Source: Mycobacterium sp. 1081908.1 (GTDB lineage: Bacteria > Actinomycetota > Actinomycetes > Mycobacteriales > Mycobacteriaceae). Taken from it: 32,000 nt of DNA. Location: assembly GCF_001673535.1 (NCBI RefSeq), contig NZ_LZLY01000097.1, positions 21,840-53,839 on the forward strand, written 5' to 3'. The notes under the pieces are model-generated. The model worked only from the letters and a program-made list of their open reading frames with translations. It was not told where the DNA came from and ran no database searches. The first letter of the stretch is position 1. Each line of letters begins with the position of its first letter. Shown here piece after piece: positions 4,385-31,995 of the stretch. The translations under genes and the position numbers were made by a program.

Positions 4385-4506
4385 TCGGTTACCCACTGGG
4401 CCACCTCGATCCTGGATGACGAGCTTCTGGACCTGCTGCGATGATGTTATTCTCCCCGAAAGAGAATGCCAATATCGGCTTTTCGCCTTACCCAATTACT
4501 GGAGCG

Positions 4507-6301: not shown

Positions 6302-6389
6302 ATCCCTGCTCCGTATTTCTGCGTAGATGCCGACCACACGGATCGTATCGCGGCACGGCGTTGCGACCTTGACCCTGACAATACCGCCA

Positions 6390-13693: not shown

Positions 13694-13799
13694 GCGCCCG
13701 GAGAAGATGGGCGCCTGATGCCGCTGTCTCCGTCGCCGGCCCGCCCACCTGGCAGTGATAATGTGGCTCTCCTGTAGGCGCGGACGAGGAGGTGATCCA

Positions 13800-15226: not shown

Positions 15227-15742
15227 ATGCGTCCGATGAATATGGCGATAAGCGCAACCGTGGTGGCCGTCGGCGTGGCGGGCGGTGTGGGCGTGGCCCC
15301 GTCCGCATGGGCCTACGACCCCTCGATCAATGGGACATACACCGCGACCGTGGTCGGCGACTGGGCCCGCACGAACGAGGTGTTCCATCAGGAGCCGGTG
15401 GTGCGCAGCACCTGGACCATCACGACTTCGTGCTCCACTGCCTACCGGTGCGACGGCACGGTCGTCAGCGACCAAGGCTGGACCGCACCGATATTCATGA
15501 ACGAGGGCACCACCTGGTTCGTCAAACGCGACATTCCCAATTGGACAACCTGTCCCGACGGCACCTCGTTCACCGGTCACGACGTCATCCACTTCTATGC
15601 CGCCAACCCGGAGACCGGCGAGAAAGTGCTTGGGTCGCCGGTGCTGGCCGGGCGGGAACAGACGTCCGGCCCCAGCGGCGCCTGCGGCACCAACAAGCCG
15701 CTGTACATCGATCAACCGTTCAGGCTGGACAAAATAGGCTGA
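15227..15742 (+). CDS. Exported protein (function unknown)
   Basis: 171-aa ORF with SD AAGGAG at 15215-15220, 6 nt before the ATG. The signal peptide MRPMNMAISATVVAVGVAGGVGVAPSAWA is followed by a mature domain with 4 Cys (INGTYTATVVGDWARTN...). Confidence 0.7.
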   Translation: MRPMNMAISATVVAVGVAGGVGVAPSAWAYDPSINGTYTATVVGDWARTNEVFHQEPVVRSTWTITTSCSTAYRCDGTVVSDQGWTAPIFMNEGTTWFVKRDIPNWTTCPDGTSFTGHDVIHFYAANPETGEKVLGSPVLAGREQTSGPSGACGTNKPLYIDQPFRLDKIG

Positions 15743-17458: not shown

Positions 17459-18889
17459 CTACGAGCCCCCGTCCGTCGGCTGGCTCGGGGTCGGGGTCGC
17501 GCCCGGCACCGGGGCACCCTGGTCGGCCGGCGCGGCAGCGCCCGCCGGCGGCGGACCGGGCAGCGTCGCTGTCGGCGACTGCTGCGCGTCGGGACCGAGC
17601 CACCTCAGGCCCGCGATCAACGGCGACACCGGTGGCGGTGCCGCGGGCGGCGGTGTGTCTGCCGATTGCTGGTTCACCGGCCCCGGCGCCGCGGCCGGCG
17701 GCGGTCCGGGCAGCGGCCGCCCCCAGGGTGGCGGTGGCCCGAAGGGTGCCGGTTCCCCGGTCGGTCCGGGCTTGCTGAGCGCCCCGGGCGCCCCGGGCGG
17801 TGCACCGTATCGGAATTGCAGGTATTCCGGATCCGCGGGCCCGGGCACGGCCTCGGCACCGATCCGCTCCCAATGGGTGCCGCGGAGGATGCCCTTGCGC
17901 AGCCCGGCGTTCGTCAGATCGATGATGAAATACCCGTTGAGGTAGTCGCCCCGGATGTACCGGTCGATGATGCTCTGGGCCCACGGGAACGTCGGCGCGT
18001 ACGCGAGGGCGGCGTCCAAATCCGGCCCGATGTCGGCGAGCGCACCGAGTGCCGGCGCGAGGTTCGTCAAGTTCTTCACCAAGTCATCGCCCGCGTCGTT
18101 GACGAGCCTGGTCGCGGTGTTGCTGAACGTCCCGAGCTTGTTCAGCGCGGTCGTGATGCGGGGGCGCTCCTTGATCAGGACGTCCAGTGCGGGCGGAATC
18201 TTGTACAGCGCCTGGGTGATCACGTCGCGCTGGGCGGCGAACGTGCCGGACAGGCGATTGAGGGCATGTATCGACGCGACGAGATTGTCGCGCTGCTGGT
18301 CGAGTGTGCCCACGAACCGGTCGAGGCGCTCGAGCAGATCCCGAACGGCGCCTTCGTTTCCCGAGAGGGCGGCGTTGAAGTTGTGGATGATGTCCCCGAA
18401 TTGACCCAGCCCGCCGGCGTTGAGGATCACCGACAGCGACGACAGCGTCTGTTCGGTCGACGGATAGGTGGACGAGCGGTTCAGCGGGATCGTGGCGCCC
18501 GGCTGCAGGCGTCCGGACGCCGGCTGGCCCAGCGGCGGATTGAGCGCCAGATGCATGGAACCCAGCAGGCTGGTCTGGCCGACGCTGGCCACCGCGTTGG
18601 CGGGGATCACCGTGCCGGGCTTTACCGAGATTTCAACGTCGGCGTGCCATCCCCGCACCGTCATCTTGCTGATGCTGCCGACGATGACATCGTCGATCAT
18701 TACCGGCGAATTCGGTTCCATCGTAACGACGTTGGCGAGTTCCACGTGGTAGGTGGTGGCACCCGGGCCTCGTCCCACCGCGCCCGGCAACGGCAGCGAG
18801 TTCAGGCCGTTGAACGCGCATCCGCTCACCGCGAGCATGACGCAGCAGACGATGCCGAGCACGCGCCGCATCGCGATCCGGGGGGTCAT
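17459..18889 (-). CDS. mceE: Mce-family lipoprotein MceE (LprK/LprN-like)
   Basis: 476-aa ORF with the lipobox MRRVLGIVCCVMLAVSGC. It has an MCE domain (YHVELANVVTMEPNSPVMIDDVIVGSISKM) and a long Pro-rich tail. It overlaps the mceD stop by 4 bp. Confidence 0.9.
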   Translation of the reverse strand: MTPRIAMRRVLGIVCCVMLAVSGCAFNGLNSLPLPGAVGRGPGATTYHVELANVVTMEPNSPVMIDDVIVGSISKMTVRGWHADVEISVKPGTVIPANAVASVGQTSLLGSMHLALNPPLGQPASGRLQPGATIPLNRSSTYPSTEQTLSSLSVILNAGGLGQFGDIIHNFNAALSGNEGAVRDLLERLDRFVGTLDQQRDNLVASIHALNRLSGTFAAQRDVITQALYKIPPALDVLIKERPRITTALNKLGTFSNTATRLVNDAGDDLVKNLTNLAPALGALADIGPDLDAALAYAPTFPWAQSIIDRYIRGDYLNGYFIIDLTNAGLRKGILRGTHWERIGAEAVPGPADPEYLQFRYGAPPGAPGALSKPGPTGEPAPFGPPPPWGRPLPGPPPAAAPGPVNQQSADTPPPAAPPPVSPLIAGLRWLGPDAQQSPTATLPGPPPAGAAAPADQGAPVPGATPTPSQPTDGGS

Positions 18890-20331
18890 GGTTGCGCTCC
18901 TTCACCCGGGAGCAGCATGTCCTGAAGGTTCGCAGGGGCGCCCGGCGGCGGCGAGGGCGGCGGTGCTGCGGCGGGCGGCGGTTCCCCCGGCGGGGGTTCC
19001 GGCATCGCCGCGCCCGGGATCCGCCCCATCGGCACCGAACCCGGCGGCCCAACCGGGTCTCCCGGCAGCCCGGTGTACGCGGAAACGGCCGGCGGCATCA
19101 ACGGCGGGCCGGGCCTGGGCCCCTCACCGCCGGGCTTCAGCCGATCCTCGCTGTAGACAACGTTTTCGGGGGCGAACGAGGGAGCCAGGATCGGGTTGAC
19201 CGGAATCGGGAGATAGTTGAAGTTGACGATGAAGTTCGGGTTGAACACCTTCAGCGCCGGGCTCAGATACAGGCCGCACAGCTTGCCCGTCTCTACGGCG
19301 GTGACGTTCTCGATGGCCCCGATGCCCGCACACCACGCATACGTCGGATTGGTGAAGTTCTGCAGGCCGACGCCGCCGCGGATGTTGCCGGAGTCAGGGT
19401 CGTAGGCGTTGTAGGCGTTTGCGAGCGCGGTCGGCGAGATGTGTAGCACGTTTTTCAACGCCATCTTTTGGTCGACGAGTATCTGTGTCAGGTCGGCCAG
19501 CCGCGAAATCTGTTCGGAGGTCGCATCACGACTGCCGGCGATGAACCGCTGCACCTCGCCGACCGCGTTCGCCAGGTCCGTCAGCGCCGCGTCCAAATCG
19601 GACTTGTTGTCGTCGAGCACGCTGGTCAGCGTCGCCAGCCGGTTGTCGAACTGCACGATCTGCACATTGCTTTCGCGCAGCGCCCCGACGAATGCCTGCA
19701 GGTTCTTGATGATGTCGACCAGGTTGCCGCTGCCTTCGGCGAAGACCCGGGCGACCCCGGACAGTTGGGCCAGCGTCTGGTGCAGCTTCTCGCCGTTGCC
19801 GCCGCCCAGCGCGTCGGCTGCACTGTCGATGAACCGCGCCACCGACGGAGTGGACACCTTGCTGTTGGGACCCAATTCCGTTGCCAGACGCATCAATTGC
19901 TCTTTGACCTGGTCCCATTCGACGGGCACCGCCGTCCGTTCGATCGGTATCACCGCGCCGTCACGCATGGTGGGGCCGCTCGACCGGTAGGCCGGCGTGA
20001 GCTGTACGTAGCGCGCCGCCACCAGGTTTTGGGCGACGATCACCGCCTTCGCGTCCGACGGAATGGGCACGCTGCGATCGACGTGCATCACCAGCTTCGC
20101 CCGGGTCCCCTGGGGCTGAATGGACGAGATGGTGCCGACCTTCATGCCGGACACCCGCACGTCGTCGCCGGGATAGATCGCGGTGGCCGTGGGGAAGTAA
20201 GCGGTGATGGTCGTCGGACGAAAGAAGGTGTTGCGGATGGCGATCGCCGCGCCGACGACAACGAGACCCGCCAGCACGATCGCCAGTCCCACCTTGAGCT
20301 TGTTGCGCGGAATCGCCCGTAGCCCCGTCAT
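18886..20331 (-). CDS. mceD: Mce-family substrate-binding protein MceD
   Basis: The track ORF is 18886..20451. I prefer ATG 20329-20331 (MTGLRAIPRNKLKVGLAIVLAGLVVVGAAIAI), which overlaps the mceC stop (ATGA). It has an MCE domain (ITAYFPTATAIYPGDDVRVSGMKVGTISSI) and a Pro-rich tail. Confidence 0.9.
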   Translation of the reverse strand: MTGLRAIPRNKLKVGLAIVLAGLVVVGAAIAIRNTFFRPTTITAYFPTATAIYPGDDVRVSGMKVGTISSIQPQGTRAKLVMHVDRSVPIPSDAKAVIVAQNLVAARYVQLTPAYRSSGPTMRDGAVIPIERTAVPVEWDQVKEQLMRLATELGPNSKVSTPSVARFIDSAADALGGGNGEKLHQTLAQLSGVARVFAEGSGNLVDIIKNLQAFVGALRESNVQIVQFDNRLATLTSVLDDNKSDLDAALTDLANAVGEVQRFIAGSRDATSEQISRLADLTQILVDQKMALKNVLHISPTALANAYNAYDPDSGNIRGGVGLQNFTNPTYAWCAGIGAIENVTAVETGKLCGLYLSPALKVFNPNFIVNFNYLPIPVNPILAPSFAPENVVYSEDRLKPGGEGPRPGPPLMPPAVSAYTGLPGDPVGPPGSVPMGRIPGAAMPEPPPGEPPPAAAPPPSPPPGAPANLQDMLLPGEGAQP

Positions 20332-21410
20332 GGCCGCCCTCCCGGGTCCTGGTTGAACGGGAACGGGAAGAAGGCCCGCGGCCCGGCGGTGTCCGGCGGC
20401 TGACCGGGCGCGCCGTAGGCGCGGAACCCGAAGGCGTAGTCGAACAACCACTGGAAGAATTCAAGCTGGAAAAGGTTGGGGATGAACGGGTTGTAGTAGT
20501 AGCCGCTCGAGACGGTCTCCCCCTGCGTCAGCTCGTATTTCGCCAGTCCGGGAAGCGCTTTGGCGAGATTGTCGCGGTTCTTTTCCAGGACCGCCGTCAC
20601 GGAGTTCAGTTTTTCCAGGGTCGGCGCCAGCTTCGCTTCGTTGTCGTGCACTATGCCGGAGAGCTGCCGGGCCACCGCGGACGTGCTGGCCAGCAGCCGC
20701 ACGATCGCCTGGCGCCGCGCCACCAGCATCGACAATAAGTCATTGGCGTTGAGGATCAGTGTGTTCAGCTGCTGGCTACGTTGCCCGAGGACGCCGGTGA
20801 CGTCGGCGGCGCCCTTGAGCAACTGCCCGAGCGTCTGGTTGCGGGCGTTGAGGGTCTGGGAAAGCCGGCTCACCCCGTCGAACGCGGGACCCAGTTGCGG
20901 CGCAACCTGATTCAGCGTCGCCGACAGCGTGTCAAGGGACTGGTTGAGCGACTCGGTGTTGGTTCCCTGCAGGTCGGTCGTCAGGTCGTTGACGGCCTCG
21001 GACAGCGAATACGGCGAGGAGGTGCGCGACACCGGGATGACGGCCATCGGATGCAAGTTGCCGGTGCCCGCGGAGTCGACCGTGAGCACCCGCTGGCCCA
21101 ACAGCGAACCGGTCTTGATGTGTGCGGTGCTGGCCGAGCCGAGCAGGATGTTGCCCTTGGCGGTGAACGTCACCAGCACGTCGCCGTGCTGCAGCGACAT
21201 GCCCGTCACGCTGCCGACCTTGATTCCCGAAATCGTCACGTCGTTGCCCAGCGCGAGGCCACCGGCATCAGCGAACAGCGCCTGGTAACGGACCGTGGTG
21301 GCCCGCTGGACCAGCTGATCGGGGTTCAGCCCGACGGCGATGACCAGGGCTATGAGGACGGCGCCGATGAATCCGGCCTTGATGAGGCCCGCTCCGCGAT
21401 ACTTATTCAT
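20328..21410 (-). CDS. mceC: Mce-family substrate-binding protein MceC
   Basis: The track ORF is 20328..21533. I prefer ATG 21408-21410 (MNKYRGAGLIKAGFIGAVLIALVIAVGL), which overlaps the 3' end of mceB by 8 nt. MCE domain: YQALFADAGGLALGNDVTISGIKVGSVTGM. Confidence 0.9.
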   Translation of the reverse strand: MNKYRGAGLIKAGFIGAVLIALVIAVGLNPDQLVQRATTVRYQALFADAGGLALGNDVTISGIKVGSVTGMSLQHGDVLVTFTAKGNILLGSASTAHIKTGSLLGQRVLTVDSAGTGNLHPMAVIPVSRTSSPYSLSEAVNDLTTDLQGTNTESLNQSLDTLSATLNQVAPQLGPAFDGVSRLSQTLNARNQTLGQLLKGAADVTGVLGQRSQQLNTLILNANDLLSMLVARRQAIVRLLASTSAVARQLSGIVHDNEAKLAPTLEKLNSVTAVLEKNRDNLAKALPGLAKYELTQGETVSSGYYYNPFIPNLFQLEFFQWLFDYAFGFRAYGAPGQPPDTAGPRAFFPFPFNQDPGGRP

Positions 21411-22443
21411 CGGGGTCCTTCGGTTCCGCGCACCGCCCGGTGGTCTGGTGTTTGATGCCCACTTCCACCGTCCGGTACTGCAAGTCGGACACCCGCAGCG
21501 ACAGTCCGCACAGGTAGTAGGGGAACCATGCACCGTACGACCCGAGCCTGAGCAGTTTGCGGTAGTTGTGCGGCAACTTCTGCAGCGAGGTGTCGATCAG
21601 GTTCTTGTCCTTGTCCAGCAGCGGGGCCAGCCGATTCGCCTGGTCCACCGTCGCGGCCAGCGGTTGGCGGGCGCGGGTGAGCAGATCCGCGATCGATGCG
21701 GTGCCGTTGTCCAGGGCCGTGATCGCGGTGCCGATGGTGTCACGATCCTGGTCGAATCCACTGACCAATTTCTCCAGGCGGTCGATGGCGCCGGAGAACT
21801 TGGTGCCGTCCTTGTCGACGGTGGCCACCACTGCGTTGAGGTTGTCGATCAGCTCCTGCACCGTCTGGTTGTTGTCGGCCAACGTGTTGGAGAACGACGA
21901 CGTCTTCGACAGTAGCGACTGCAGGGTCCCGCCCTCGCCCTGGAAGACCTGGATGAGCGCCGCGCTCAGCGCGTTGACGTCTTGCGGATTGAGGCCCTGG
22001 GTAACGGGTTTCAGCCCGCCCAGCAGCAGATCGATGTCCAGGGCCGGCGCCGTCCGATCGAGCGGGATCTCCGATCCCGCCGGCAGGACCTTGGTGGACC
22101 CCGGGCCGTCGGTCAGCTCGAGATAGCGATCACCGACCAGGTTCAGGTAGCGAACCACGGCGCGGGTGCCGGTGGTCAGCACCACGCTGCGGTCGGCGTC
22201 GAACTTCACCTCGACCTTCTTGTCGGCGCGCAGCTTGACGCTGTTGACCGTGCCCACCCGGATGCCGGCGACCCGGACGGTCTCGCCGGTCTTCAGCCGC
22301 GACACGTCGGTGAAGAGCGCCGAATACCCGTTCGTCGAACCGGTGGTGTACTGCCCAAAGATGAAGAACAGGAACACGGTCAGCACGACCATCACGGTGG
22401 CGAACGCCCCGAACTTGAGGATCATCCCGCGCGAGCCGGTCAT
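21403..22443 (-). CDS. mceB: Mce-family substrate-binding protein MceB
   Basis: The track ORF is 21403..22626. I prefer ATG 22441-22443 (MTGSRGMILKFGAFATVMVVLTVFLFFIF), which overlaps the mceA stop (ATGA). MCE domain: YSALFTDVSRLKTGETVRVAGIRVGTVNSV. Confidence 0.9.
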   Translation of the reverse strand: MTGSRGMILKFGAFATVMVVLTVFLFFIFGQYTTGSTNGYSALFTDVSRLKTGETVRVAGIRVGTVNSVKLRADKKVEVKFDADRSVVLTTGTRAVVRYLNLVGDRYLELTDGPGSTKVLPAGSEIPLDRTAPALDIDLLLGGLKPVTQGLNPQDVNALSAALIQVFQGEGGTLQSLLSKTSSFSNTLADNNQTVQELIDNLNAVVATVDKDGTKFSGAIDRLEKLVSGFDQDRDTIGTAITALDNGTASIADLLTRARQPLAATVDQANRLAPLLDKDKNLIDTSLQKLPHNYRKLLRLGSYGAWFPYYLCGLSLRVSDLQYRTVEVGIKHQTTGRCAEPKDPDE

Positions 22444-23717
22444 CCGGGCATCCCGATCTGCATGGTGTTGCGAGGCGGTCCGTCGATCGGCCCGTACAGC
22501 AGCTGCTTGAGCGCATCGGAGTTGAGCAGCAGTTGCTGGTTGCCGTACTGCGTGGGGTTGGAGCCGTTGTCCGTCACCACGAACGGCGGCGCGACGTCGA
22601 AGGGCACCACCGGAAGGTCCCGGCATTGCGGCCCGCCGGTCGCCGCCACCTTGGGCAGGTTGGACGGGTAGCGGTAACGCTCGGCGCCGAGGCCGAGGAC
22701 GACGGTGACCTTAACCATCGGCTCGGGCAGGTCCGGCGCATGCAGGTTCCCCAGCGACCCGGCGATGCCGCAGTACAGCGCCTGATGGTACTGGTTGAGC
22801 AGATCGGTGGTCGGCACCAGCAGATGCAGGTCGTCCGTCAGCGCTTGCCGGTTGCCGCCGACCACCTCATTGCCCAAGTCCGCCAAGCCAATCGAGCTGA
22901 TCAGGAAGGCATCCAGGTTTTGTTGCTCGTCGACGATCGTCTTGCTGATCCGCACGGCATTGTCGGTCGTGGCCAGCAGGTGCGGCGCCGCGTCGGCGTA
23001 GGCCTCGCTCACCGCGGGCAGGGCCTCGAGGTCATGGCTCAGCGCGGGAAGGCTGGGCTCCTGGGTGGCCAGGAATGAATCCAGATCGCGCAGCATCTGG
23101 CCGATCTTGTGGCCGCGTCCGTTGACCGCAGACGCTAGTGCGCCGAGCGTTTCGTTGAGCTTGGCGGGATCGATCGTCGACAGCAGCGATGTGAGTTGCT
23201 GGAACACCGTGTTGATTTCGACGGTGACATGTTTGCCCTCAAGCACCTGACCCGCGCGCAGCGACTGCGGCGACGGCTCCGCGGGCGGTACCAGCTCAAT
23301 GAACTTCGCGCCGAACACCGTCGTCGACGCGATATCGACGAGAACATTGGCCGGGATGAGGTGCATCTGCGACGGTTGCATCGCGAGGTGCAGGACGGCT
23401 TCGCCGTTGGGCCGCACGTCGATTGAGGCGACCTTGCCCACCTCGACGCCACGCATCTTCACCTTGGCCTCGGGGTTCATCACCAGGCCGGCGCGCGGCG
23501 AGACGACGGTAACGGGCACGCTCGTGGTGAAGGAGCCCTGAAATAGGCCTATCGCGACGGCGAAGACCAGGCCGATGAGGACGATGGTCGCCAGCCCCGC
23601 CAACGGCCGCACGTACGACTGCGCGCCGAAGTGGCGCCCGGGCGATGCCGCGACGGGCCGTGCGGCACTGGTGGTTTCGGACCGGTGAATGGGGCCCGGC
23701 CCGAGGTCACGCGTCAC
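22440..23717 (-). CDS. mceA: Mce-family substrate-binding protein MceA
   Basis: 425-aa ORF with a GTG start at 23715-23717. A TM (LAGLATIVLIGLVFAVAIGLF) is followed by an MCE domain (VTVVSPRAGLVMNPEAKVKMRGVEVGKVASI). Confidence 0.9.
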   Translation of the reverse strand: MTRDLGPGPIHRSETTSAARPVAASPGRHFGAQSYVRPLAGLATIVLIGLVFAVAIGLFQGSFTTSVPVTVVSPRAGLVMNPEAKVKMRGVEVGKVASIDVRPNGEAVLHLAMQPSQMHLIPANVLVDIASTTVFGAKFIELVPPAEPSPQSLRAGQVLEGKHVTVEINTVFQQLTSLLSTIDPAKLNETLGALASAVNGRGHKIGQMLRDLDSFLATQEPSLPALSHDLEALPAVSEAYADAAPHLLATTDNAVRISKTIVDEQQNLDAFLISSIGLADLGNEVVGGNRQALTDDLHLLVPTTDLLNQYHQALYCGIAGSLGNLHAPDLPEPMVKVTVVLGLGAERYRYPSNLPKVAATGGPQCRDLPVVPFDVAPPFVVTDNGSNPTQYGNQQLLLNSDALKQLLYGPIDGPPRNTMQIGMPG

Positions 23718-23736
23718 TGTCCTTTCACCACCTTCC

Positions 23737-24585
23737 CTAGCCCGACAGGTTGAAGTTGCCGTTGGTGCCGTAGATGGACAGCGAGACGAGCAGCGTCACC
23801 GACACGACGACGATCAACGAGGTTCGCACCGCGTTACCGGTCGCGACGCCGACACCGGCCGGTCCGCCCGAAGCAAAGTAGCCGAAATAGGTGTGAATCA
23901 ACAAGATTGTGATCGCCATCAGGACGGCCTGCAGGAACGACCACAACAGGTCGATCGGATTGAGGAACGTCGAGAAGTAGTGCTGATACAGCCCGCCCGA
24001 CTGGCCGAACAGGACCACGGTGGTGAATTGGCTCGCGAAGAACGACAGGATGACGGCAATGGAATACAGCGGCGTGATCGCCATCATTCCGGCCGCGATC
24101 CGGGTGCTGACCAGATACGAAACCGGCCGGATCGCCATGGATTCCAACGCGTCGATCTCTTCGTTGATCCGCATGGCACCCAGCTGCGCGGTCACGCCGG
24201 CGCCGAAGGTGGCCGCCAGACCGATCCCGGCGACGATCGGCGCCGCGATGCGAACATTGATGAACGCCGCCAAGAACCCGGTCAACGCCTCGATGCCGAT
24301 GTTGCCCAGCGAGCTATAGCCCTGGACGGCCAGCGTGCCGCCGGCGGCCAGCGTCAAGAAGCCGACGATCACCAGCGTGCCGCCGATCATGGCCAAAGTT
24401 CCTGCGCCCATGCTGATTTCGGCGATCAGGCGGATGACTTCCCGCCGGTAATGCCGGACGGCAAAGGGGACCCCGGCAAGCGCCTTGCCGTAGAACAGCG
24501 TGTGATCGCCGATCCGGCTCAGGGTGCCGACCGGCTTTTCGAGCTGCCGCGTCAGGCGCGGGTACGTGGCTCTCAGCGTCATCAC
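23737..24585 (-). CDS. yrbEB: YrbE/MlaE-type permease subunit B of the Mce transporter
   Basis: 282-aa polytopic ORF with the conserved permease EExDA loop (RINEEIDALESM). The start is GTG 24585 or ATG 24582. Confidence 0.9.
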   Translation of the reverse strand: MMTLRATYPRLTRQLEKPVGTLSRIGDHTLFYGKALAGVPFAVRHYRREVIRLIAEISMGAGTLAMIGGTLVIVGFLTLAAGGTLAVQGYSSLGNIGIEALTGFLAAFINVRIAAPIVAGIGLAATFGAGVTAQLGAMRINEEIDALESMAIRPVSYLVSTRIAAGMMAITPLYSIAVILSFFASQFTTVVLFGQSGGLYQHYFSTFLNPIDLLWSFLQAVLMAITILLIHTYFGYFASGGPAGVGVATGNAVRTSLIVVVSVTLLVSLSIYGTNGNFNLSG

Positions 24586-24604
24586 GGTATGCCCCTATAC
24601 CTCC

Positions 24605-25423
24605 TCAGTGGCCCTTGGCCGACATGCGGATACCGATAGCCGTCACAACCACATTCACGACGAACAGCGACATGAACGCGTACACGACCGTTTCGTTGAC
24701 GGCGTTGCCGACCGCCTTGGCGCCCCCACCGGACACCGTCAGCCCCCGGTAGCACGCGACCAACCCGGCGATCAGGCCGAAAAGCGCTGCCTTGACACAG
24801 GAAATGACCACCTCGGGCACGCCGGTCAGCAGGGTGATGCCGGCGGCGAACGCACCGGGATTGACGTCTTGGACGAACACCGAGAAGACGTAGCCGCCGA
24901 CAATACCGATGATGACCACCAGGCTGTTCAGCAGCAGCGCCACCAGACCCGCGGCCAGCATGCGGGGTGTCACGAGGCGCTGAACCGGGTTGATGCCCAG
25001 CACCTCCATCGCGTCGATCTCTTCTCGGATCGTTCGGGATCCCAGGTCCGCGCACATCGCCGTGGAACCGGCGCCCGCCACGATCAACACCGTGACCAGT
25101 GGGCCGACCTGGGTCACCGCACCGAAGGCCGCGCCGGCCCCGGACAGGTCCGCGGCGCCCAGTTCCCGCAGCAGGATGTTTAGCGTGAAGCTGACCAGGA
25201 CGGTGAACGGAATGGCCACCAGCAGGGTGGGAGCGAGCGCCACCCGGGCGACGAACCACGACTGCTCCAGAAACTCACGCCACTGGAAGGGCCGGCGGAA
25301 CACGAACTTGATGGCGTCGGCCGACATCGCGAACAAGCCGCCGACGGCCTCCATGGGCTTGGAGCCCCGGCCGAGCGAAATGCCGCCGGTCCATCGCTCC
25401 GGGCCCGCGCGCTTAATCGCCAT
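24605..25423 (-). CDS. yrbEA: YrbE/MlaE-type permease subunit A of the Mce transporter
   Basis: The track ORF is 24605..25510. I prefer ATG 25421-25423 (MAIKRAGPERW...), preceded by GGAAGGGA. The product is 272 aa, polytopic, with the EExDA loop (TIREEIDAMEV). Confidence 0.85.
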   Translation of the reverse strand: MAIKRAGPERWTGGISLGRGSKPMEAVGGLFAMSADAIKFVFRRPFQWREFLEQSWFVARVALAPTLLVAIPFTVLVSFTLNILLRELGAADLSGAGAAFGAVTQVGPLVTVLIVAGAGSTAMCADLGSRTIREEIDAMEVLGINPVQRLVTPRMLAAGLVALLLNSLVVIIGIVGGYVFSVFVQDVNPGAFAAGITLLTGVPEVVISCVKAALFGLIAGLVACYRGLTVSGGGAKAVGNAVNETVVYAFMSLFVVNVVVTAIGIRMSAKGH

Positions 25424-25625
25424 CGGCCTCAGTCCCTTCCAACATTTTCGAGACCGATGGTCTTGTTCCGCCGAATGACAGGCTGTAGATTTGGCTGGAC
25501 CGACGGCCACAAACGCGAGCTACCACAGTCGAAATGCGTTGCGGACAGCCGCATTCCGGCATTCGCCTCGGTGCGACAGCCACTACCATCCTCACGCCAC
25601 TCCTCCGTTCTGTCGCGTGAGTTGG

Positions 25626-25659
25626 CGCTTCAAAACGAGGGGCCTCGTGTCTTGAAGCG
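25626..25659 (-). terminator. Composite GC-rich hairpin between the CoA-transferase and yrbEA (possible factor-independent terminator or leader structure)
   Basis: Outer 8-bp arms are CGCTTCAA/TTGAAGCG and inner 6-bp arms are ACGAGG/CCTCGT. On the transcribed (minus) strand the inner stem is followed by TTTTG. The hairpin lies 127 nt downstream of stop 25786 and about 200 nt upstream of yrbEA start 25423. Confidence 0.3.
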
Positions 25660-25785
25660 TCCGGCGATTATGACTCATGCGGTGTCCGGGCGGAATGGAA
25701 AATTCAAAACCGTTATCGGACAGCTCATCGGATGAAAAGCGGCGTTCGGCTCACACATTTCACACAGCTCCAGTCCCTGTAGTCC

Positions 25786-26991
25786 TCAAGTGACGGCGCC
25801 GGCCGTCTTGAGTTCGATGATGCGGTCCCAATCGAGTCCGATTTCCATCAGGATTTCGTCGGTCTGCTCGGCGAATCCGGGCGCCGGGCCGGTGCGTGGC
25901 GCCGTGACGTCGAACTGGACCGGGTTGGCCACCAGGTCGAGTTCGCCTGCGCGAACCAGGTACTCGTTGGCCCGGATTTGGGCGTCGTCGACCGCCTGCA
26001 AGGTGTCCTGCACGGGCGCCCATGGACCGGCAAGCGTGGCAAAGCGGTCGCTCCACTCGGCAAGCGTGCGGGTTGCGATCACCTTGGTCAAGATCTCGAC
26101 CGCATCCGCGGTATTGGCGGCGATCGTCTCGACGGTGGCGAAGCGGGGATCGTCGGCCAGCTCCGGCAACTCGACGTGCCGGCAAACGTCGGCCCAGAAC
26201 TTGGTGGGCTGCATCATCACGAAGGAGATGTAGCGGCCGTCGGAGGTGGTATACAGCCCGACCAACGGATTGTTCGGCGCGCCGTGCACGCCCGGCGGCG
26301 GCGCCTCCATCCGCTGGTCCAGATGCTTCGTCAGCGCGACCGTGTGTCCCATCGCCCAGAAGCCACTGCCCAGCAGCGACACGTCGACGACCGACGGTTC
26401 GCCGGTGCGTTCGCGCTTGAGCAACGCCGCCGCGATGCCGCCGGCGAGGTTGGTGCCGGAGATCGTGTCGCCGTAGGCCGGTCCGGGGGGCGCGATCATG
26501 CCGGGCATCCCGGCAGGGGTGATGGTCGCGGCGGTGCCGGCCCGGCACCAGAACGCGGTCATGTCGTAGCCGCCCTTTTCCGATTCGGCGCCCCGCGGGC
26601 CGAGCGCGCTCCCGCGGGCGTAGACGATGTTCGGGTTGACCGTACGAATGTCGTCGACGTCGATGCCGAACTTCTTCCGGTGAGCGGGAAGGAAGCTCGT
26701 GAGGAACACGTCGGACCGGCGGGCCAGCTCGTAGAGCACCTCTTTGCCCTCGGGCACCGCCATGTCGAGTCCGATGCTGCGCTTGCCGCGGTTGGCGTGT
26801 TCGATGTTGGGGTTCGGGTCGCCCTCGACGCGCAACATGCCGGTCTGCCGGAGCCCGCGTTGCGGGTCGCCCGTCACGGCGTGCTCGACCTTGACCACGT
26901 CGGCGCCCCACTCGGCGAGCACGGCGCCCGCGGACGGGACGAACCCGTACATGGCGACCTCCAGGACGCGGATGCCCTCCAGCGGCCTCAT
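25786..26991 (-). CDS. Family III CoA-transferase (CaiB/BaiF/Frc-like)
   Basis: The track ORF is 25786..27930, but the upstream part overlaps the ALDH gene in another frame. I prefer ATG 26989-26991 (MRPLEGIRVLEVAMYGFVPSAGAVLAEWGADVVKVE), which overlaps the ALDH stop (ATGA). The product is 401 aa and has the typical N-terminal Rossmann-like signature and a GGYDMTAFW region. Confidence 0.85.
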   Translation of the reverse strand: MRPLEGIRVLEVAMYGFVPSAGAVLAEWGADVVKVEHAVTGDPQRGLRQTGMLRVEGDPNPNIEHANRGKRSIGLDMAVPEGKEVLYELARRSDVFLTSFLPAHRKKFGIDVDDIRTVNPNIVYARGSALGPRGAESEKGGYDMTAFWCRAGTAATITPAGMPGMIAPPGPAYGDTISGTNLAGGIAAALLKRERTGEPSVVDVSLLGSGFWAMGHTVALTKHLDQRMEAPPPGVHGAPNNPLVGLYTTSDGRYISFVMMQPTKFWADVCRHVELPELADDPRFATVETIAANTADAVEILTKVIATRTLAEWSDRFATLAGPWAPVQDTLQAVDDAQIRANEYLVRAGELDLVANPVQFDVTAPRTGPAPGFAEQTDEILMEIGLDWDRIIELKTAGAVT

Positions 26992-28505
26992 GCGGGCGCC
27001 CCGACAACGGGAACTGCAAAGGTCTTGCCCTCCAAGAACTCCTCCAGCCCGGCGACGCCCATCTCGCGGCCGACACCCGACTGCTTGAAGCCGCCGAACG
27101 GGCTGTCGGCGGCGAAGTAGTTGCCGCCGTTGATGGAGAACGATCCGGTCCGGATCCGGCGCGCCACCGCCAGGGCGCGGTCCTGGTCGCGGCTGAAGAC
27201 CGCGCCGGCCAGTCCGTAGATCGAGTTGTTGGCGATGCGCACCGCGTCGTCGTCGTCGTCGAACGCGATGACCACCAGCACCGGTCCGAAGACCTCGTCC
27301 TGGGCGATCTCGCTGTCGGGGTCGACGTTGGTGAGCAGCGTGGGCGCATAGAAGTAGCCCGGATCCAACCGCTTGCCGCCCGTGACCAGAGTCGCGCCCG
27401 CGGCCACGGCCCGCTGGACCATTCCGTCGACCTTGTCGCGCTGGCGCTCGTTGATGAGCGGCCCCATGAGCGTCTTCGAATCGGCGGGGTCGCCGTGGCG
27501 CACCTTGGCGAAGTTGGCCGCGATCAGTTCGACGATCTCGTCGTGGTGCGACCTGGGCACCAACAGCCGCGACGTGAGCGCGCAGCCCTGCCCGGCGTGG
27601 GTGACCATGCTGAACGCCGCGAACATGCTCGCTCCGGCGAAGTCCGCGTCGTCGAGCATGATCACGGCCGACTTGCCGCCCAGCTCCAGGAAGACGCGTT
27701 TGACGGTCTCGCTGGCGGCGGCCATGATCTTGCGGCCGACGGCGGTCGATCCGGTGAAGGTGACGACGTCGACGTCGGGGCTGGTGGTCAACGCGACCCC
27801 GACGGCCGCGTCCGACGAAGTGAGGACGTTCACGACGCCGGCCGGGATGTCGGTGTGGTTGGCGATCACCTCGCCGAGCGCCAGCGTGACCAGCGGGGTG
27901 TCCGGCGCCCCCTTGAGCACCACGGTGCATCCGGCGGCCAGCGCCGGGGCCAGCTTGGCGAGCGCGAGCTGGTTCGGATAGTTGTAGGCGATGATGGCCG
28001 CCGCCACTCCCGCGGCTTCCTTCTCCACCCAGCGGTGATGAAGCATGCCCCGCGATTCGATCTCGCCGAGGTCTTCGGAGAACTGATAGGTGCGCAGCAG
28101 GTCGGCGTAGAAGCGCACGATCTTGATGGGGTCGTCGAGCTGAGCGCCCTGGGTGAGCGCGCGGGTCGCGCCGACCTCGGCGATGGTCAGCTCGCGCAGC
28201 TCCTCGGCGTGCTCGACCAGCGCCGCGTGCAACTGGTCGAGGCAGCGGATCCGCAACTCGACGTTGGTCGACCAGTCGGTCGTGTCGAAGGCGTGCCGGG
28301 CCGCCGAGATCGCCGCGTGGGCCTGCTCGACGCCGGCATCGGGCGCATGCCCGATGACCGCACCGGTGGCGGGGTTGATCGAGGGGAACGTCTTGTCGGC
28401 GGTGACGAGCCGGCCGTCAATCAGCAGTCGGCGATCGACCTGTGACTCGGGCGCGGCATCCGCGATCGTCTTCGCGGTGGTCTCTGCCGTGTCCTGCACT
28501 GGCAT
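26988..28505 (-). CDS. NAD(P)-dependent aldehyde dehydrogenase
   Basis: 505-aa ORF with the catalytic Glu motif FLELGGKSA, catalytic Cys motif HAGQGCALTSRLLV and cofactor motif FTGSTAVG. The SD GAGGGAG lies upstream of ATG 28505. Confidence 0.9.
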   Translation of the reverse strand: MPVQDTAETTAKTIADAAPESQVDRRLLIDGRLVTADKTFPSINPATGAVIGHAPDAGVEQAHAAISAARHAFDTTDWSTNVELRIRCLDQLHAALVEHAEELRELTIAEVGATRALTQGAQLDDPIKIVRFYADLLRTYQFSEDLGEIESRGMLHHRWVEKEAAGVAAAIIAYNYPNQLALAKLAPALAAGCTVVLKGAPDTPLVTLALGEVIANHTDIPAGVVNVLTSSDAAVGVALTTSPDVDVVTFTGSTAVGRKIMAAASETVKRVFLELGGKSAVIMLDDADFAGASMFAAFSMVTHAGQGCALTSRLLVPRSHHDEIVELIAANFAKVRHGDPADSKTLMGPLINERQRDKVDGMVQRAVAAGATLVTGGKRLDPGYFYAPTLLTNVDPDSEIAQDEVFGPVLVVIAFDDDDDAVRIANNSIYGLAGAVFSRDQDRALAVARRIRTGSFSINGGNYFAADSPFGGFKQSGVGREMGVAGLEEFLEGKTFAVPVVGAPA

Positions 28506-28534
28506 CCCCTACTCCCTCGTGTGGTGACGGTCAC

Positions 28535-28549
28535 GAAAATTTCATTCTC
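28535..28549. promoter_or_regulatory. Near-match to the GnGAAT-N3-ATTCnC motif (gene strand: GAGAATGAAATTTTC)
   Basis: One core mismatch (ATTT for ATTC). It is centred 37 nt upstream of ALDH start 28505, the same geometry as the perfect copies. It is weak on its own, because one-mismatch cores also occur inside coding DNA. Confidence 0.25.
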
Positions 28550-28786
28550 TTCCCCGGCGAATCTTACATTCGGGTCTCGATAATTCAAGAAAGTCTCAGG
28601 AATGGGACCGGGCCGCCGACCAGCGGCGTTATTGAGCGTGTGTTGCGGTAGTGGGCCTCTCGGCGCAGGCCGTGCGCGGTTTCGCGGCCATGTTGCACGC
28701 CGCTTCGCGCCGAGAGTAAGGTTCTCATAATTGTAAGGGAGATTCTTTGTGACTGAGATGGCCGCATTTGGAGACGAGGCCTCGAC

Positions 28787-29488
28787 GTGAAGACCGCGGT
28801 GGTCACCGGTGGCGGATCCGGCATCGGTCAAGCGGTCGCGCAGCGGCTGCGCGCCGACGGACTTGATGTCGCCACCATCGACCTCAGACCGTCGGAAGCC
28901 GACTTCGCCTTCACCGCCGACGTCACCGACCGGCCGCAGGTGGATGCCGCGCTGGCGGCCATCCGCGCCCAGCTGGGACCCGTGACGGTCCTCGTCAATG
29001 CGGCGGGCCTGGACGGCTTCAAGCGCTTCGCCAACATCACCTTCGAGGAGTGGCAGCGGGTGATCGACGTCAACCTCAATGGTGTCTTCCACGTGACCCA
29101 GGCGGTGCTGCCCGACATGGTGGAGGCCGGGTGGGGACGGATCGTCAACATCTCGTCGTCGAGCACCCATTCCGGTGCGCCCTACATGAGCCACTACGTG
29201 GCGGCCAAGTCCGCGGTCAACGGCCTCACCAAGTCGCTGGCACTCGAGTACGGCCCCAATGGCATCACGGTGAACGCCGTGCCGCCGGGATTCATCGACA
29301 CCCCGATGCTGCGCGCCGCGGAGCAACACGGATACCTCGGCGACATCGAAGCGACCATCGCCCGGACCCCGGTGCGCCGGATGGGCAAGCCGGAAGACAT
29401 CGCGGCCGCGTGTGCCTTCCTGATCTCCGAAGAGGCCGGCTACATCACCGGTCAGATCTTGGGCGTCAACGGCGGCCGCAACACCTGA
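28787..29488 (+). CDS. Classical short-chain dehydrogenase/reductase (FabG-like)
   Basis: 233-aa ORF with a GTG start. Signatures: TGGGSGIG cofactor motif, NAAG, the catalytic Ser region NISSSS and YVAAK (YxxxK). Confidence 0.9.
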   Translation: MKTAVVTGGGSGIGQAVAQRLRADGLDVATIDLRPSEADFAFTADVTDRPQVDAALAAIRAQLGPVTVLVNAAGLDGFKRFANITFEEWQRVIDVNLNGVFHVTQAVLPDMVEAGWGRIVNISSSSTHSGAPYMSHYVAAKSAVNGLTKSLALEYGPNGITVNAVPPGFIDTPMLRAAEQHGYLGDIEATIARTPVRRMGKPEDIAAACAFLISEEAGYITGQILGVNGGRNT

Positions 29489-29511
29489 GCATCGACTTAA
29501 AAGGAGACAGT

Positions 29512-30387
29512 GTGGGAGAGGGCGCACCGGGGCGCGTTAAGGGAAGGGTCGCCTTCGTCACCGGCGCGGCGCGCGGGCAGGGTCGCAGCCACGCGGTGCG
29601 GCTGGCCGAGGAGGGCGCCGACATCATCGCCGTCGACCTGTGCCGTGACGTCGACACGATCGGTTACCCCATGGCGGCACCCGAGGACCTCGAGGAGACC
29701 GCCCGGCTCATCGAGAAGACCGGCCAGGGCGCCGCGATCGCCCAGGCCGACGTGCGCGACGCCGCGCAACTGAGCGCGGCCCTGGAGCGCGGGGTCGCGG
29801 AGTTCGGCAGGCTCGACATCGTCGTGGCGCAGGCCGGGGTCGCCGGCATGAAGGGCCGCCCGCCCCTGCAGGCGTGGTGCGACGTCATCAACACCAACCT
29901 GATCGGCACCATCAACGCCATCCAGGTCGCGCTGCCCTACCTGGGCCAGGGCGCCTCGATTGTCGCGACCGGATCCACCGCCGCGCTGATGGATACCGCC
30001 AAGAAGGACAACCCCGGCAACGACCCGGGCGGCATGGCCTACATCCACTCCAAGCGGGCGCTGTCGCACTATGTCCACGACCTGGCAACCGAGCTGGCGC
30101 CGTTGGGGATTCGCGCCAACGTGATTCACCCGACCAACACCAACACCCCGATGCTGCAGAGCGAGCCGATGTACCGGTCGTTCCGGCCGGACCTCGAACG
30201 CCCGACCCGGGCCGACGCCGAACCGGTTTTCGGCGTGCAGCAGGCGATGAAAATCCCCTACATCGAACCCGAGGACATCAGCAACGCCGTGCTGTGGTTG
30301 GCCTCCGACGAGGCCCGGTACGTCACCGGCGTGCAGCTGCGCGTCGATGCCGGCGGCTACCTCAAGTGGTACGACTACGACAATTGA
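29512..30387 (+). CDS. Mycofactocin-coupled SDR family oxidoreductase (carveol dehydrogenase-like)
   Basis: The track ORF is 29050..30387, which overlaps the previous gene in another frame. I prefer GTG 29512, 5 nt after AAGGAG (29501-29506). The N-terminus GRVAFVTGAARGQGRSHAVRLAEEGADIIAVDLC...YPMAAPEDLEET...ADVRD and the C-terminus EPEDISNAVLWLASDEARYVTGVQLRVDAG match my recollection of the mycofactocin-associated SDR subfamily. YIHSK provides the YxxxK motif. Confidence 0.8.
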   Translation: MGEGAPGRVKGRVAFVTGAARGQGRSHAVRLAEEGADIIAVDLCRDVDTIGYPMAAPEDLEETARLIEKTGQGAAIAQADVRDAAQLSAALERGVAEFGRLDIVVAQAGVAGMKGRPPLQAWCDVINTNLIGTINAIQVALPYLGQGASIVATGSTAALMDTAKKDNPGNDPGGMAYIHSKRALSHYVHDLATELAPLGIRANVIHPTNTNTPMLQSEPMYRSFRPDLERPTRADAEPVFGVQQAMKIPYIEPEDISNAVLWLASDEARYVTGVQLRVDAGGYLKWYDYDN

Positions 30388-30403
30388 GCCGCAAGGAGAC
30401 ATC

Positions 30404-30604
30404 GTGAAGGTCTGGGTTGATTCGGAACGCTGCCAGGGCCACACCCTTTGCGCGATGATCGCGCCGGATTCGTTCCAGCTCAGCGACATCGACGGCAGTT
30501 CGTCGGCGGTCGACGAGGTGGTGCCGGCCGACAAGGAGGATCAGGTCCGCGAAGCCGCCCACTCCTGCCCGGAACAGGCCATCGTCATCACGGATGAAAC
30601 GTAA
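30404..30604 (+). CDS. Small [3Fe-4S]-type ferredoxin (P450 redox partner type)
   Basis: The track ORF is 30347..30604. I prefer GTG 30404, 5 nt after AAGGAG (30393-30398). The 66-aa product has the cluster motif CQGHTLC...CP (CxxHxxC(x)nCP) and lies immediately upstream of a P450. Confidence 0.8.
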   Translation: MKVWVDSERCQGHTLCAMIAPDSFQLSDIDGSSSAVDEVVPADKEDQVREAAHSCPEQAIVITDET

Positions 30605-30618
30605 AGGGAGACAGCGCC

Positions 30619-31995
30619 TTGAGTGTCGACGACAGCGTTGATGACCAACTCAGCGACAGCGACCGTAAACGGAACCGGTATCACTTCGATCGGCACTCCG
30701 CGGATTACCGTTCGCGGTTCAAAGACATCACCGAGGAGATGCACGCCCGCTGCCCGATGGCCTGGAGCGACACCTACGGCGGGCATTGGGTGGCGGCCGG
30801 CAGCCACGAGGTGTTCGAGCTCGCCCGCTGCCCCGCGGTCTCCAACGATCACGATGTGAACAACGAACGCCGTGGCTACAAAGGCATTTCGATCCCGACG
30901 GCCAGCCGCATCAACGGCATCCGGGGCGGCATCCTGGAGATGGACAACCCGGAGCACAAAACCTACCGCGCCGTGCTGAACCCCTACCTGTCGCCGGCCG
31001 CGGTCAAGCGCTGGGAGCCGTTCGTCGACGACGTGACGCGCGCCTGCCTCGACGAGAAGATCGAGGAGGGCCGCATCGACTTCGTCGACGACCTGGCCAA
31101 CGTCGTACCGGCCGTGCTGACGCTGGCGATGATGGGCATCCCGCTGAAGAACTGGCAGATGTACAGCGAGCCGACCCATGCCGCGGTGTACACCCCGGAG
31201 CATTCCCCGGACATCCAGCGCGTCACCGAGATGCACCGGCAGATGGGGATCGACCTGATCAACAACATGATCGAGATCCGCGAGAATCCGCGGCCCGGCC
31301 TGGTCAATGCCCTGCTCGAAATGCGCATCGACGGTGAGCCCGCGCCCGACCTGGAAATCATCGGAAATCTCGGTTTGATCATCGGTGGCGGCTTCGACAC
31401 CACCACGGCGCTGACCGCCCATTCGCTGGAATGGCTTTCGCAGAATCCCGATCAGCGCGAGCTGCTCAGCAAGCAACGCGAAACGCTGCTCGATGCCGCG
31501 ACCGAGGAGTTCCTGCGCTATTTCACCCCCGCCCCCGGCGACGGCAGGACGTTCTCCGACGACGTCGAGCTCGACGGCATCACGTTCAAAGAGGGCGAGC
31601 GGCTGTGGATTTCGTGGGCGATGGCCAACCGCGACCCCGCGGTGTTCCACGACCCGGACGAGATCATCCTCGACCGCAAAGGCAACCGGCACTTCAGCTT
31701 TGGACTCGGTGTGCACCGCTGCGCCGGGTCGAACGTAGCGCGCACGGTGTTCAAGTCGATGCTGACCGCGGTCCTCGACCGCATGTCCGACTACACCTGC
31801 GACCCCGAAGGGACCGTGCATTACGAGACCATCGGCGTCATCCAGGGCATGCGGAAGCTGCCGGCCACCTTCACCCCCGGCCGCAGGGTCGGGGCCGGCC
31901 TGGACGAGACGCTCGAGAAACTGCAACGCGCCTGCGACGAGCAAGAGCTGGCCAGGCCGATCACCGAGCGCAAGGAAGCCGCCGTCATCGACTGA
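30619..31995 (+). CDS. Cytochrome P450 monooxygenase
   Basis: 458-aa ORF with a TTG start at 30619, preceded by GGGAG (30606-30610). Signatures: heme loop FSFGLGVHRCAGSNVA, ExxR (EEFLR) and I-helix GGGFDTTT. There is a ~37-aa charged extension after the usual C-terminal LPATFTPG. Confidence 0.9.
   Translation: MSVDDSVDDQLSDSDRKRNRYHFDRHSADYRSRFKDITEEMHARCPMAWSDTYGGHWVAAGSHEVFELARCPAVSNDHDVNNERRGYKGISIPTASRINGIRGGILEMDNPEHKTYRAVLNPYLSPAAVKRWEPFVDDVTRACLDEKIEEGRIDFVDDLANVVPAVLTLAMMGIPLKNWQMYSEPTHAAVYTPEHSPDIQRVTEMHRQMGIDLINNMIEIRENPRPGLVNALLEMRIDGEPAPDLEIIGNLGLIIGGGFDTTTALTAHSLEWLSQNPDQRELLSKQRETLLDAATEEFLRYFTPAPGDGRTFSDDVELDGITFKEGERLWISWAMANRDPAVFHDPDEIILDRKGNRHFSFGLGVHRCAGSNVARTVFKSMLTAVLDRMSDYTCDPEGTVHYETIGVIQGMRKLPATFTPGRRVGAGLDETLEKLQRACDEQELARPITERKEAAVID

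Follow-up and report, generated by a model that had tools for sequence, protein, structure and literature searches.

A gene set around a probable CYP188A cytochrome P450 adjoins an mce operon, most likely of the mce5 type, in Mycobacterium

The stretch of DNA analysed here (the window; 32,000 nucleotides (nt) of contig NZ_LZLY01000097.1, positions 21,840 to 53,839, assembly GCF_001673535.1, Mycobacterium sp. 1081908.1) carries an eight-gene mce operon, most likely of the mce5 type, behind a six-gene set for oxidation and coenzyme A (CoA) activation, here called the module. The reading that we favor, with confidence and doubt in about equal parts, is that an old actinobacterial module of the CYP188A type was joined head-to-tail to an mce5-type importer in Mycobacterium, where the two would form a route of uptake, oxidation and activation. 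The evidence consists of gene identities, synteny, conservation and the positions of a common operator. Among these, the mce operon directly follows the CoA-transferase gene of the module, on the same strand, in all 83 Mycobacterium loci with enough flank, at CoA-transferase identities that span 84-98%.

The module and the mce operon

Genes were called from a listing of open reading frames (ORFs), third-position GC content and profile searches, which recovered all the genes that a preliminary description had named in this window (GC content of 63-69%). The aldehyde dehydrogenase (ALDH) and family III CoA-transferase placed by that description upstream of yrbEA, on the same strand, are both present, and the ATGA shared by the ALDH stop and the CoA-transferase start was confirmed. 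Likewise, profiles and motifs agree with the divergent operon it had proposed, i.e., a short-chain dehydrogenase/reductase (SDR), a mycofactocin-type SDR, a 3Fe-4S-type ferredoxin and a P450. The outlying genes it mentioned (a TetR regulator with a second P450, a FadD ligase, an amidohydrolase and an enoyl-CoA hydratase) were also found by ORF and profile searches, and the coverage of hydroxylation, alcohol oxidation, aldehyde oxidation and CoA activation that it had claimed holds at the level of enzyme family. The module and its intergenic regions are as follows:

25424-25785, minus strand: spacer between the CoA-transferase gene and yrbEA, with a conserved promoter-like block (at least 20 species aligned)
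25786-26991, minus strand: family III (CaiB/BaiF-type) CoA-transferase (PF02515, 271 bits), the last gene before the mce operon
26988-28505, minus strand: ALDH dependent on nicotinamide adenine dinucleotide (NAD) (PF00171, 494 bits), with ELGGK and GQGC motifs
28506-28786, no strand: divergent promoter region with two copies of GAGAAT-N3-ATTCTC
28787-29488, plus strand: SDR1, classical and FabG-like (PF13561/PF00106; NF009466, 233 bits, cut-off 222), with TGGGSGIG and YVAAK
29512-30387, plus strand: SDR2, mycofactocin-coupled type, subfamily 1, carveol-dehydrogenase type (TIGR03971, 341 bits, cut-off 300)
30404-30604, plus strand: ferredoxin of the Fdx5 type (PF13459/PF13370), 66 amino acids (aa), CxxHxxC(x)nCP
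30619-31995, plus strand: cytochrome P450, probably CYP188A (PF00067), with GGFDTT, EFLR and FGLGVHRCAG

The plus-strand four-gene set, of which SDR1 is the first gene, diverges from the ALDH gene at a distance of 281 nt between starts and has internal gaps of 23, 16 and 14 nt, the last lying between ferredoxin and P450. None of the six module reading frames is interrupted, and every catalytic motif that was checked (in the ALDH, both SDRs, the ferredoxin and the P450) is intact. The CoA-transferase, whose nearest named relative is that of M. interjectum (97%), matches no NCBIfam equivalog model at its cut-off, and its nearest solved structure is Rv3272 (E-value of 6e-36). The ALDH has the catalytic Glu and Cys; its best model is TIGR04284 (Rv0768/AldA-type), which it matches with 661 bits without reaching the cut-off of 775, and it is therefore a paralogue of Rv0768, not that equivalog. 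SDR2 passes the TIGR03971 cut-off, in agreement with the mycofactocin type claimed earlier, and the mycofactocin maturase gene mftC lies on another contig of the same genome (C121:85328-86347; 674 bits, over the cut-off). Judging by the model score and this mftC gene, SDR2 is a putative mycofactocin-coupled SDR, with NAD re-oxidation via mycofactocin predicted. The ferredoxin motif reads CQGHTLC...SCP, with three cluster Cys only, and a [3Fe-4S] cluster is expected; the M. marinum counterpart, Fdx5 (Mmar_4716), binds a [3Fe-4S] cluster with an E0 of +230 mV (PMC6237146).

The P450 of the module is probably a CYP188A. A 454-aa P450 of M. marinum, a match that bears no CYP name, shares 84% identity with the window P450, whose GFDTT and EFLR are the motifs tabulated for CYP188A3 (Mmar_4717), to which its length and neighbours fit as well; its haem-loop, FGLGVHRCAG, differs at two positions from the tabulated FGIGVHRCIG. 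As the CYP subfamily rule calls for more than 55% identity to a named member, it is to be noted that we infer the tie between the window P450 and Mmar_4717. The nearest solved structure is P450cin (E-value of 1e-45), and comparisons with CYP125, CYP142 and CYP124 gave E-values of 1e-30 to 1e-42. CYP188A is an orphan family with no orthologue in H37Rv, and a recent attempt to express CYP188A9 was unsuccessful.

The mce operon and its partners are as follows:

15776-25510, minus strand: eight-gene mce operon (MlaE, MlaD and Mce4_CUP1 domains)
24605-25423 or 24605-25510, minus strand: yrbEA (PF02405, MlaE permease)
23737-24585, minus strand: yrbEB (PF02405, MlaE permease)
22440-23717, minus strand: mceA (PF02470 and PF11887)
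21403-22626, minus strand: mceB
20328-21533, minus strand: mceC
18886-20451, minus strand: mceD
17459-18889, minus strand: mceE
15776-17458, minus strand: mceF (PF02470 and PF11887)
13755-14543 and 14540-15115, plus strand: two Mas/Mam-like (Mce-associated membrane) genes, downstream of mceF on the opposite strand

Two YrbE/MlaE permeases followed by six MlaD-domain Mce genes fit the layout of an Mce (MlaFEDB-like) importer, and MceB to MceE agree position by position with other mce operons of the same genome. The yrbEA start is probably the ATG at 25423 rather than the GTG at 25510, which leaves a CoA-transferase/yrbEA spacer of 362 nt. MceA matches M. smegmatis Mce1A (E-value of 1e-63) and M. 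tuberculosis Mce4A (1e-22), and these match strengths indicate that the operon is orthologous to neither mce1 nor mce4; the database names of matches to the mce proteins read only 'MCE family protein', with no mce type. From their translations, the two Mas-like genes each encode one transmembrane helix and then a Mas-like domain, although a Pfam search gave no match for either. The Mas-like genes are flanked by genes for two small proteins (13243-13647, minus strand; 15227-15742, plus strand), which have signal peptides and multiple cysteines and also no Pfam match. A second, yrbE-less mceA-F copy with identities of 59-67% is present in the genome, with mceA-E (62-67% identical to those of the window) at G000:C141:613-6469 (L156) and mceF on contig C17, and contig C14 holds a separate mce4-like region. 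The opposite-strand mas pair and the yrbE-less second copy form a trait pattern by which the window operon is most likely assigned to the mce5 type. The preliminary description had also stated that the window lacks an MceG-type ATPase gene; indeed, no MlaF/MceG-type signature occurs on the contig of the window, and MceG is encoded at G000:C121:53497-54570 (E-value of 1.6e-184 to chain G of PDB 8FED, the M. smegmatis Mce1 complex).

Conservation, outlying genes and promoters

The CoA-transferase was used as a query against 201 genomes of the family, and about 19 kb were fetched around 40 orthologues and 80 further named Mycobacterium loci. Orthologues with identities of 73-98% were found in all 11 sampled genomes of the same genus and in 27 genomes of other genera. 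In six of the 83 junction loci described above, a DUF35/OB-fold gene lies between the CoA-transferase gene and the mce operon. Almost every locus has an intact CoA-transferase, SDR1, ferredoxin and P450 (74-98% identity); G124 has lost the ALDH, SDR2 and ferredoxin and has a partial P450. In a wider sample of the genus, the CoA-transferase occurs in 107 of 150 species and an mce5-like YrbEB in 119 of 150, and roughly one in five of the high-quality genomes in the genus is without the CoA-transferase. Three complete genomes whose YrbEB lies far away (G321, G325 and G230; L163-L165) have a yrbE-less mceA-F set directly after the CoA-transferase gene. The CoA-transferases of the genus form one clade (Shimodaira-Hasegawa-like approximate likelihood ratio test (SH-aLRT) support of 95) nested among those of other genera, which fits one origin of the mce junction.

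Outside the genus, all six module genes are kept in 23 of 27 loci, most of which (about 22) bear a TauD/TfdA-type dioxygenase gene between the ALDH and SDR1 genes (e.g., L045:3985-4935, minus strand). The best solved relatives of this TauD-type protein are the 2,4-dichlorophenoxyacetic acid (2,4-D) and phenoxypropionate dioxygenases of the Fe(II)/2-oxoglutarate family (E-value of 5e-29); none of the Mycobacterium loci examined has such a gene, and the genome of the window is without an orthologue (best match of 29%). Most other-genus modules have a DUF35 gene after the CoA-transferase gene, and a DUF35/ChsH2-type OB-fold protein together with a MaoC hydratase is encoded beside it in other genera. 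Fourteen genomes outside the genus encode a YrbEB that is at least 75% identical; 12 of them carry the module, whereas of the 162 module-less genomes only 2 encode such a YrbEB. The 201 genomes counted for this include G069, which is unpublished and on which no particular claim depends. Because relatives are not independent, the support that this co-occurrence lends to a link with Mce is only suggestive. In the outgroup G049, an mce5-like operon lies 19 kb from the module and is adjoined by a second P450, which the P450 tree places as the sister of the Mycobacterium CYP188A clade (96/82); TauD-bearing modules have P450s of a separate clade (99/93). This tree lends no support to the simple version of a scenario in which the other-genus module is the direct orthologue and mce was inserted next to it in Mycobacterium. 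The CoA-transferase tree is compatible with vertical descent. Separately, at the rearranged locus L042 (G099:C1:853362-872558), which has a clade-A P450, a second CoA-transferase copy of another genus nests in the Mycobacterium clade (81% identity) and may reflect a transfer between genera.

Farther from the junction, the window contains the following genes:

1167-2696, minus strand: FadD3-family acyl-CoA ligase (NF005801, 750 bits, cut-off 657)
2693-3883, minus strand: amidohydrolase_2 (PF04909), in an operon with the FadD3-family ligase
4441-5259, plus strand: enoyl-CoA hydratase of the crotonase family (PF00378)
5600-6337, minus strand: TetR regulator (TetR_N domain), divergent from CYP150A6
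6400/6487-7764, plus strand: second P450, a CYP150A6 orthologue (PDB 6DCD, E-value of 3.8e-244, residues 1-425 against 1-424)

The GQETT, ESLR and HMAFARGVHSCPG motifs of the second P450 are also the same as the tabulated ones. A PE-PGRS protein (7808-9592, minus strand) is encoded between CYP150A6 and a TetR-controlled membrane operon; the match of its C-terminal part to glycoside hydrolase family 18 was called sub-threshold, with PF00704 at 29.7 bits for a cut-off of 29.6 and a whole-protein E-value of 6.6e-7. Past the end of the window (L168, G000:C97:53700-63700), the module P450 is followed by a same-strand esterase gene and then by convergent genes for two acyl-CoA dehydrogenases (391 and 332 aa, a heteromer-like pair), a nitroreductase and a LuxC-type acyl-CoA reductase; the acyl-CoA dehydrogenase pair beyond the P450 is also found in M. 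marinum. Orthologues of the window enoyl-CoA hydratase (63-75% identical) adjoin the amidohydrolase/FadD3 pair in G049 and G182. In other genera this pair lies 2-10 kb from the CoA-transferase gene, sometimes with an enoyl-CoA hydratase, and the outlying genes as a group (FadD3-type ligase, amidohydrolase, echA, TetR/second P450) lie within 2-30 kb of the module. The proximity of the amidohydrolase/FadD3 pair to the module in these genera indicates that the scattered genes of the window are part of one old supercluster. In genus g11 (G064 and G171; L161/L162/L056 and L159/L160/L047), TetR/CYP150A6 orthologues (66%) and an SDR immediately precede another type of mce, whose YrbEB is 42% identical and which has no close orthologue in the window genome; they lie 20-30 kb from the CYP188A-type module. 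In G198 (genus g24) this other type stands directly before the amidohydrolase/FadD3 pair. These two arrangements indicate that the supercluster acquired Mce importers more than once.

The inverted repeat GAGAAT-N3-ATTCTC links several of these promoters. It has seven matches in the window at up to two mismatches versus 0.49 expected, a 14-fold enrichment. Within the divergent promoter region, one copy (28535-28549, one mismatch) lies 37 nt from the ALDH start and a weak one (two mismatches) lies at 28712-28726; a perfect copy occupies the amidohydrolase promoter (3906-3920). In the 120 fetched loci, 80 of 87 classified operator sites with up to one mismatch lie upstream of the ALDH gene (33), of the CoA-transferase gene where the ALDH has been lost (37) or of SDR1 (10), and six more precede the amidohydrolase gene (six loci, all from other genera). 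The operator recurs at the same promoters in several genera. A GAGAAT half-site upstream of yrbEA in G049 and G099 was too weak and was not used. The patterns TnnAACnnGTTnnA for KstR and AnCAAGnnCTTGnT for KstR2, reportedly those of Kendall et al., were searched for in the window and were absent from its promoters: the sole KstR match (4239-4252) lies inside the lpqH ORF and KstR2 has none.

The spacer before yrbEA has a conserved block of its own. It comprises GATAACGGTT, a -10-like CATAAT (25672-25667) and a hairpin at about 25660-25625 with compensatory changes; an inverted repeat, CTCACGC-N17-GCGTGAG, surrounds GGAGG, the fold has a z-score of -2.5, and a search of Rfam with the spacer gave no family match. 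The block is retained in short spacers and, among the loci examined, is absent only from L128 and L034, two Mycobacterium loci in which yrbEA abuts or overlaps the CoA-transferase gene. With no block and abutting genes, the importer must be cotranscribed with the CoA-transferase there, and read-through from the CoA-transferase gene into the mce operon is possible elsewhere. Neither module-less mce5-like operons nor yrbE-less clusters showed the block upstream, so that it belongs to this junction and not to mce5 operons in general.

A proposed uptake route and its alternatives

From the arrangement described above we infer a functional coupling of the module to Mce5 and an order of reactions. 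The Mce5 complex, powered by the shared MceG encoded elsewhere, would carry a hydrophobic compound across the envelope, and CYP188A and its ferredoxin would hydroxylate it. The SDRs (one of them re-oxidised through mycofactocin) and the ALDH would then convert the alcohol into a carboxylate, from which the CoA-transferase would form the CoA thioester, and the FadE pair past the window, the enoyl-CoA hydratase and the amidohydrolase/FadD3-type ligase would continue the breakdown. A repressor acting at GAGAAT-N3-ATTCTC would control the ALDH/CoA-transferase, SDR/P450 and amidohydrolase/ligase promoters, and the mce operon would be driven by its own promoter-like leader, perhaps with a contribution of read-through from upstream. 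A narrower proposal, which we put forward tentatively and with doubt slightly prevailing, is that the module and Mce5 make up a dedicated route for the uptake and breakdown of a lipid or terpenoid class in environmental and non-tuberculous mycobacteria, lost in M. tuberculosis. The repressor would then sense a pathway intermediate, and other genera would have, in their TauD-bearing sister module, a variant of this pathway. Terpenoid catabolism, to which P450cin as the nearest structure and the carveol-dehydrogenase-type SDR might point, is a guess, because bacterial P450s commonly match one another with an E-value of 1e-45.

Several observations weigh against such a coupling. The preliminary description had portrayed a complete toolkit wrapped around the importer, a portrayal that the comparison weakens: all six module genes are kept in only 23 of 76 genus loci, the ALDH is missing from 37, SDR2 from 45 and both from 32, and complete sets occur elsewhere without an adjacent mce5. 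Loss of the ALDH and SDR2 from so many loci indicates that the full oxidation chain is not required at every locus that keeps the importer. Conservation around orthologous mce operons, chosen beforehand as a test, holds within the genus; outside it, none of 29 loci has an mce5-type yrbE within about 11 kb of the module and 15 of 27 module genomes lack an mce5-like YrbEB altogether. Conversely, two Mycobacterium genomes (G219 and G201) have an mce5-like operon without the CoA-transferase. As regards co-regulation, the other expectation, the operator is shared by the ALDH/CoA-transferase promoter and that of amidohydrolase/FadD3 but does not occur before yrbEA, both in the window (up to two mismatches) and in the 120 loci (up to one mismatch). 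The lack of this operator at yrbEA, together with the separate conserved block, leaves co-regulation of module and importer unsupported. Additionally, a literature search on CYP188 and Mmar_4710-4716 found no functional study, and regions of the window type are part of a large P450/lipid gene island (PMC6237146), whose neighbours may be unrelated.

The main alternative is an account by mere descent, according to which mce5 and the CYP188A module are independent units with different substrates and separate regulation, which came to be neighbours in a large catabolic island early in the history of the genus and have remained so for lack of selection against it. The separate yrbEA block without the module operator, the occurrence of either unit without the other, the free loss of module genes while the junction stays and the presence of at least six P450 genes of different families in Mmar_4694-4770 of M. 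marinum (PMC6237146) all speak for it. Against such an account stand a junction that persists throughout the 83 loci over the stated range of CoA-transferase identity, the co-occurrence of module and YrbEB in 12 of 14 genomes outside the genus, the sister P450 that adjoins the mce5-like operon of G049 and the recruitment of other mce types to the same supercluster, and we regard it as possible, if rather doubtful.

Two further explanations are less likely than this one. The module and Mce5 could constitute a second sterol or steroid pathway, parallel to Mce4 and the KstR regulon. The window ligase passes the FadD3-family cut-off, and the acid that FadD3 activates is one of the steroid C/D rings; moreover, a DUF35/ChsH2-type protein and a MaoC hydratase accompany the CoA-transferase in other genera, and a two-gene FadE pair follows the P450. 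To our knowledge, CYP150A6, whose structure is solved, has no known steroid substrate, which counts against this pathway, as do the lack of KstR/KstR2 operators at the window promoters, a P450 that is not CYP125, CYP142 or CYP124 and the separate mce4-like region on contig C14. In spite of one low-replicate RNA-seq study in which the M. smegmatis mce5 cluster was cholesterol-induced (PMC4881515), we therefore consider a sterol-specific pathway unlikely. Less probable still is that the module is a decaying remnant with little or no function in Mycobacterium, of which the window would hold an intact ancestral copy. A set of six genes in only 30% of the genus loci, the gene losses in G124 and the lack of the CoA-transferase in about a fifth of the high-quality genomes would be expected of such a remnant, yet the CoA-transferase, SDR1, ferredoxin and P450 are intact in nearly all loci, the frames and catalytic motifs of the window are preserved and the operator is conserved.

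Mycobacteria import lipids mainly through Mce transporters, only a few of which have firm substrates (fatty acids for Mce1 and cholesterol for Mce4). The extra mce operons of non-tuberculous species have no assigned substrate, and the junction of mce5 with an orphan P450 offers a concrete way in: a ligand of CYP188A, or a compound that releases the GAGAAT-N3-ATTCTC repressor, could lead to the substrate of Mce5. If the module and Mce5 do form a dedicated route, Mce5 would be the first Mce system beyond mce1-4 to have a substrate, and the CYP188 family would receive its first function. The locus would also assign physiological roles to Fdx5, a ferredoxin of unusually high potential, and to a mycofactocin-dependent SDR.

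Comparison with known systems

CaiB-type enzymes are often annotated as 'dehydratase', which matters for comparison with M. marinum. For that species, a published supplement (Child et al., 2018, Chem Sci; PMC6237146) lists Mmar_4705-4710 as mce, 4711-4712 as 'hypothetical', 4713 as 'dehydratase', 4714 as ALDH, then 4715, Fdx5 (4716), CYP188A3 (4717) and two acyl-CoA dehydrogenases (to 4719). Mmar_4705-4719 thus has the order of the window, with the 'hypothetical' pair at the yrbEB/A positions and the 'dehydratase' at that of the CoA-transferase, and the putative gene-by-gene orthology is based on this order and on identities (84% for the P450 and 81% for MceA). One gene is listed between ALDH and ferredoxin, where the window has two SDRs. 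The gene order is therefore already in print for M. marinum, but as a list only, given without analysis, Mce link or substrate (PMC6237146). New here are the genus-wide junction, the erosion of the module, its TauD-bearing sister, the co-occurrence, the G049 P450 and the operator with its separate yrbEA leader.

The importer itself resembles mce5 of M. paratuberculosis (MAP0757-0765), for which a yrbE-less second copy (MAP2189-2194) and opposite-strand mas pairs were described (Casali and Riley, 2007; PMC1810536). The likeness is one of pattern, i.e., eight genes that are neither mce1 nor mce4, opposite-strand Mas genes and a second copy devoid of yrbE; the catabolic genes flanking mce5 are not discussed in that study. 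In the mce1 operon of M. tuberculosis (Rv0166-Rv0174), yrbEA is likewise immediately preceded by a same-strand CoA-activating gene, fadD5. However, fadD5 encodes an ATP-dependent ligase that is counted in the operon (PMC1810536), whereas in the window it is a CoA-transferase that precedes yrbEA, about 360 nt away and with a promoter-like block in between. Another M. tuberculosis region, Rv0761c-Rv0770 (CYP51, CYP123, the ferredoxin Rv0763c, SDRs and AldA, Rv0768), similarly clusters P450s, a CxxHxxC ferredoxin, SDRs and an ALDH, although its P450s belong to other families and the window ALDH is a paralogue of Rv0768. We know of no mce operon adjacent to Rv0761c-Rv0770.

The closest parallel in logic is that of Mce4 and the cholesterol genes of M. 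tuberculosis and Rhodococcus (KstR regulon; CYP125/CYP142, FadD19), in which an importer is likewise set among P450, CoA-activation and beta-oxidation genes, with TetR-type repressors and with MceG shared and encoded elsewhere. The window differs in its P450 family, in having GAGAAT-N3-ATTCTC instead of KstR/KstR2 sites at its promoters and in an importer that adjoins a CoA-transferase rather than a ligase. Moreover, whereas a single P450 carries out the oxidation in the cholesterol pathway, here this would be split among the SDRs and the ALDH. Thus, the locus does not represent a new type of system, as it follows the Mce4/cholesterol logic; its value lies in making the substrate of an Mce system of non-tuberculous mycobacteria amenable to testing.

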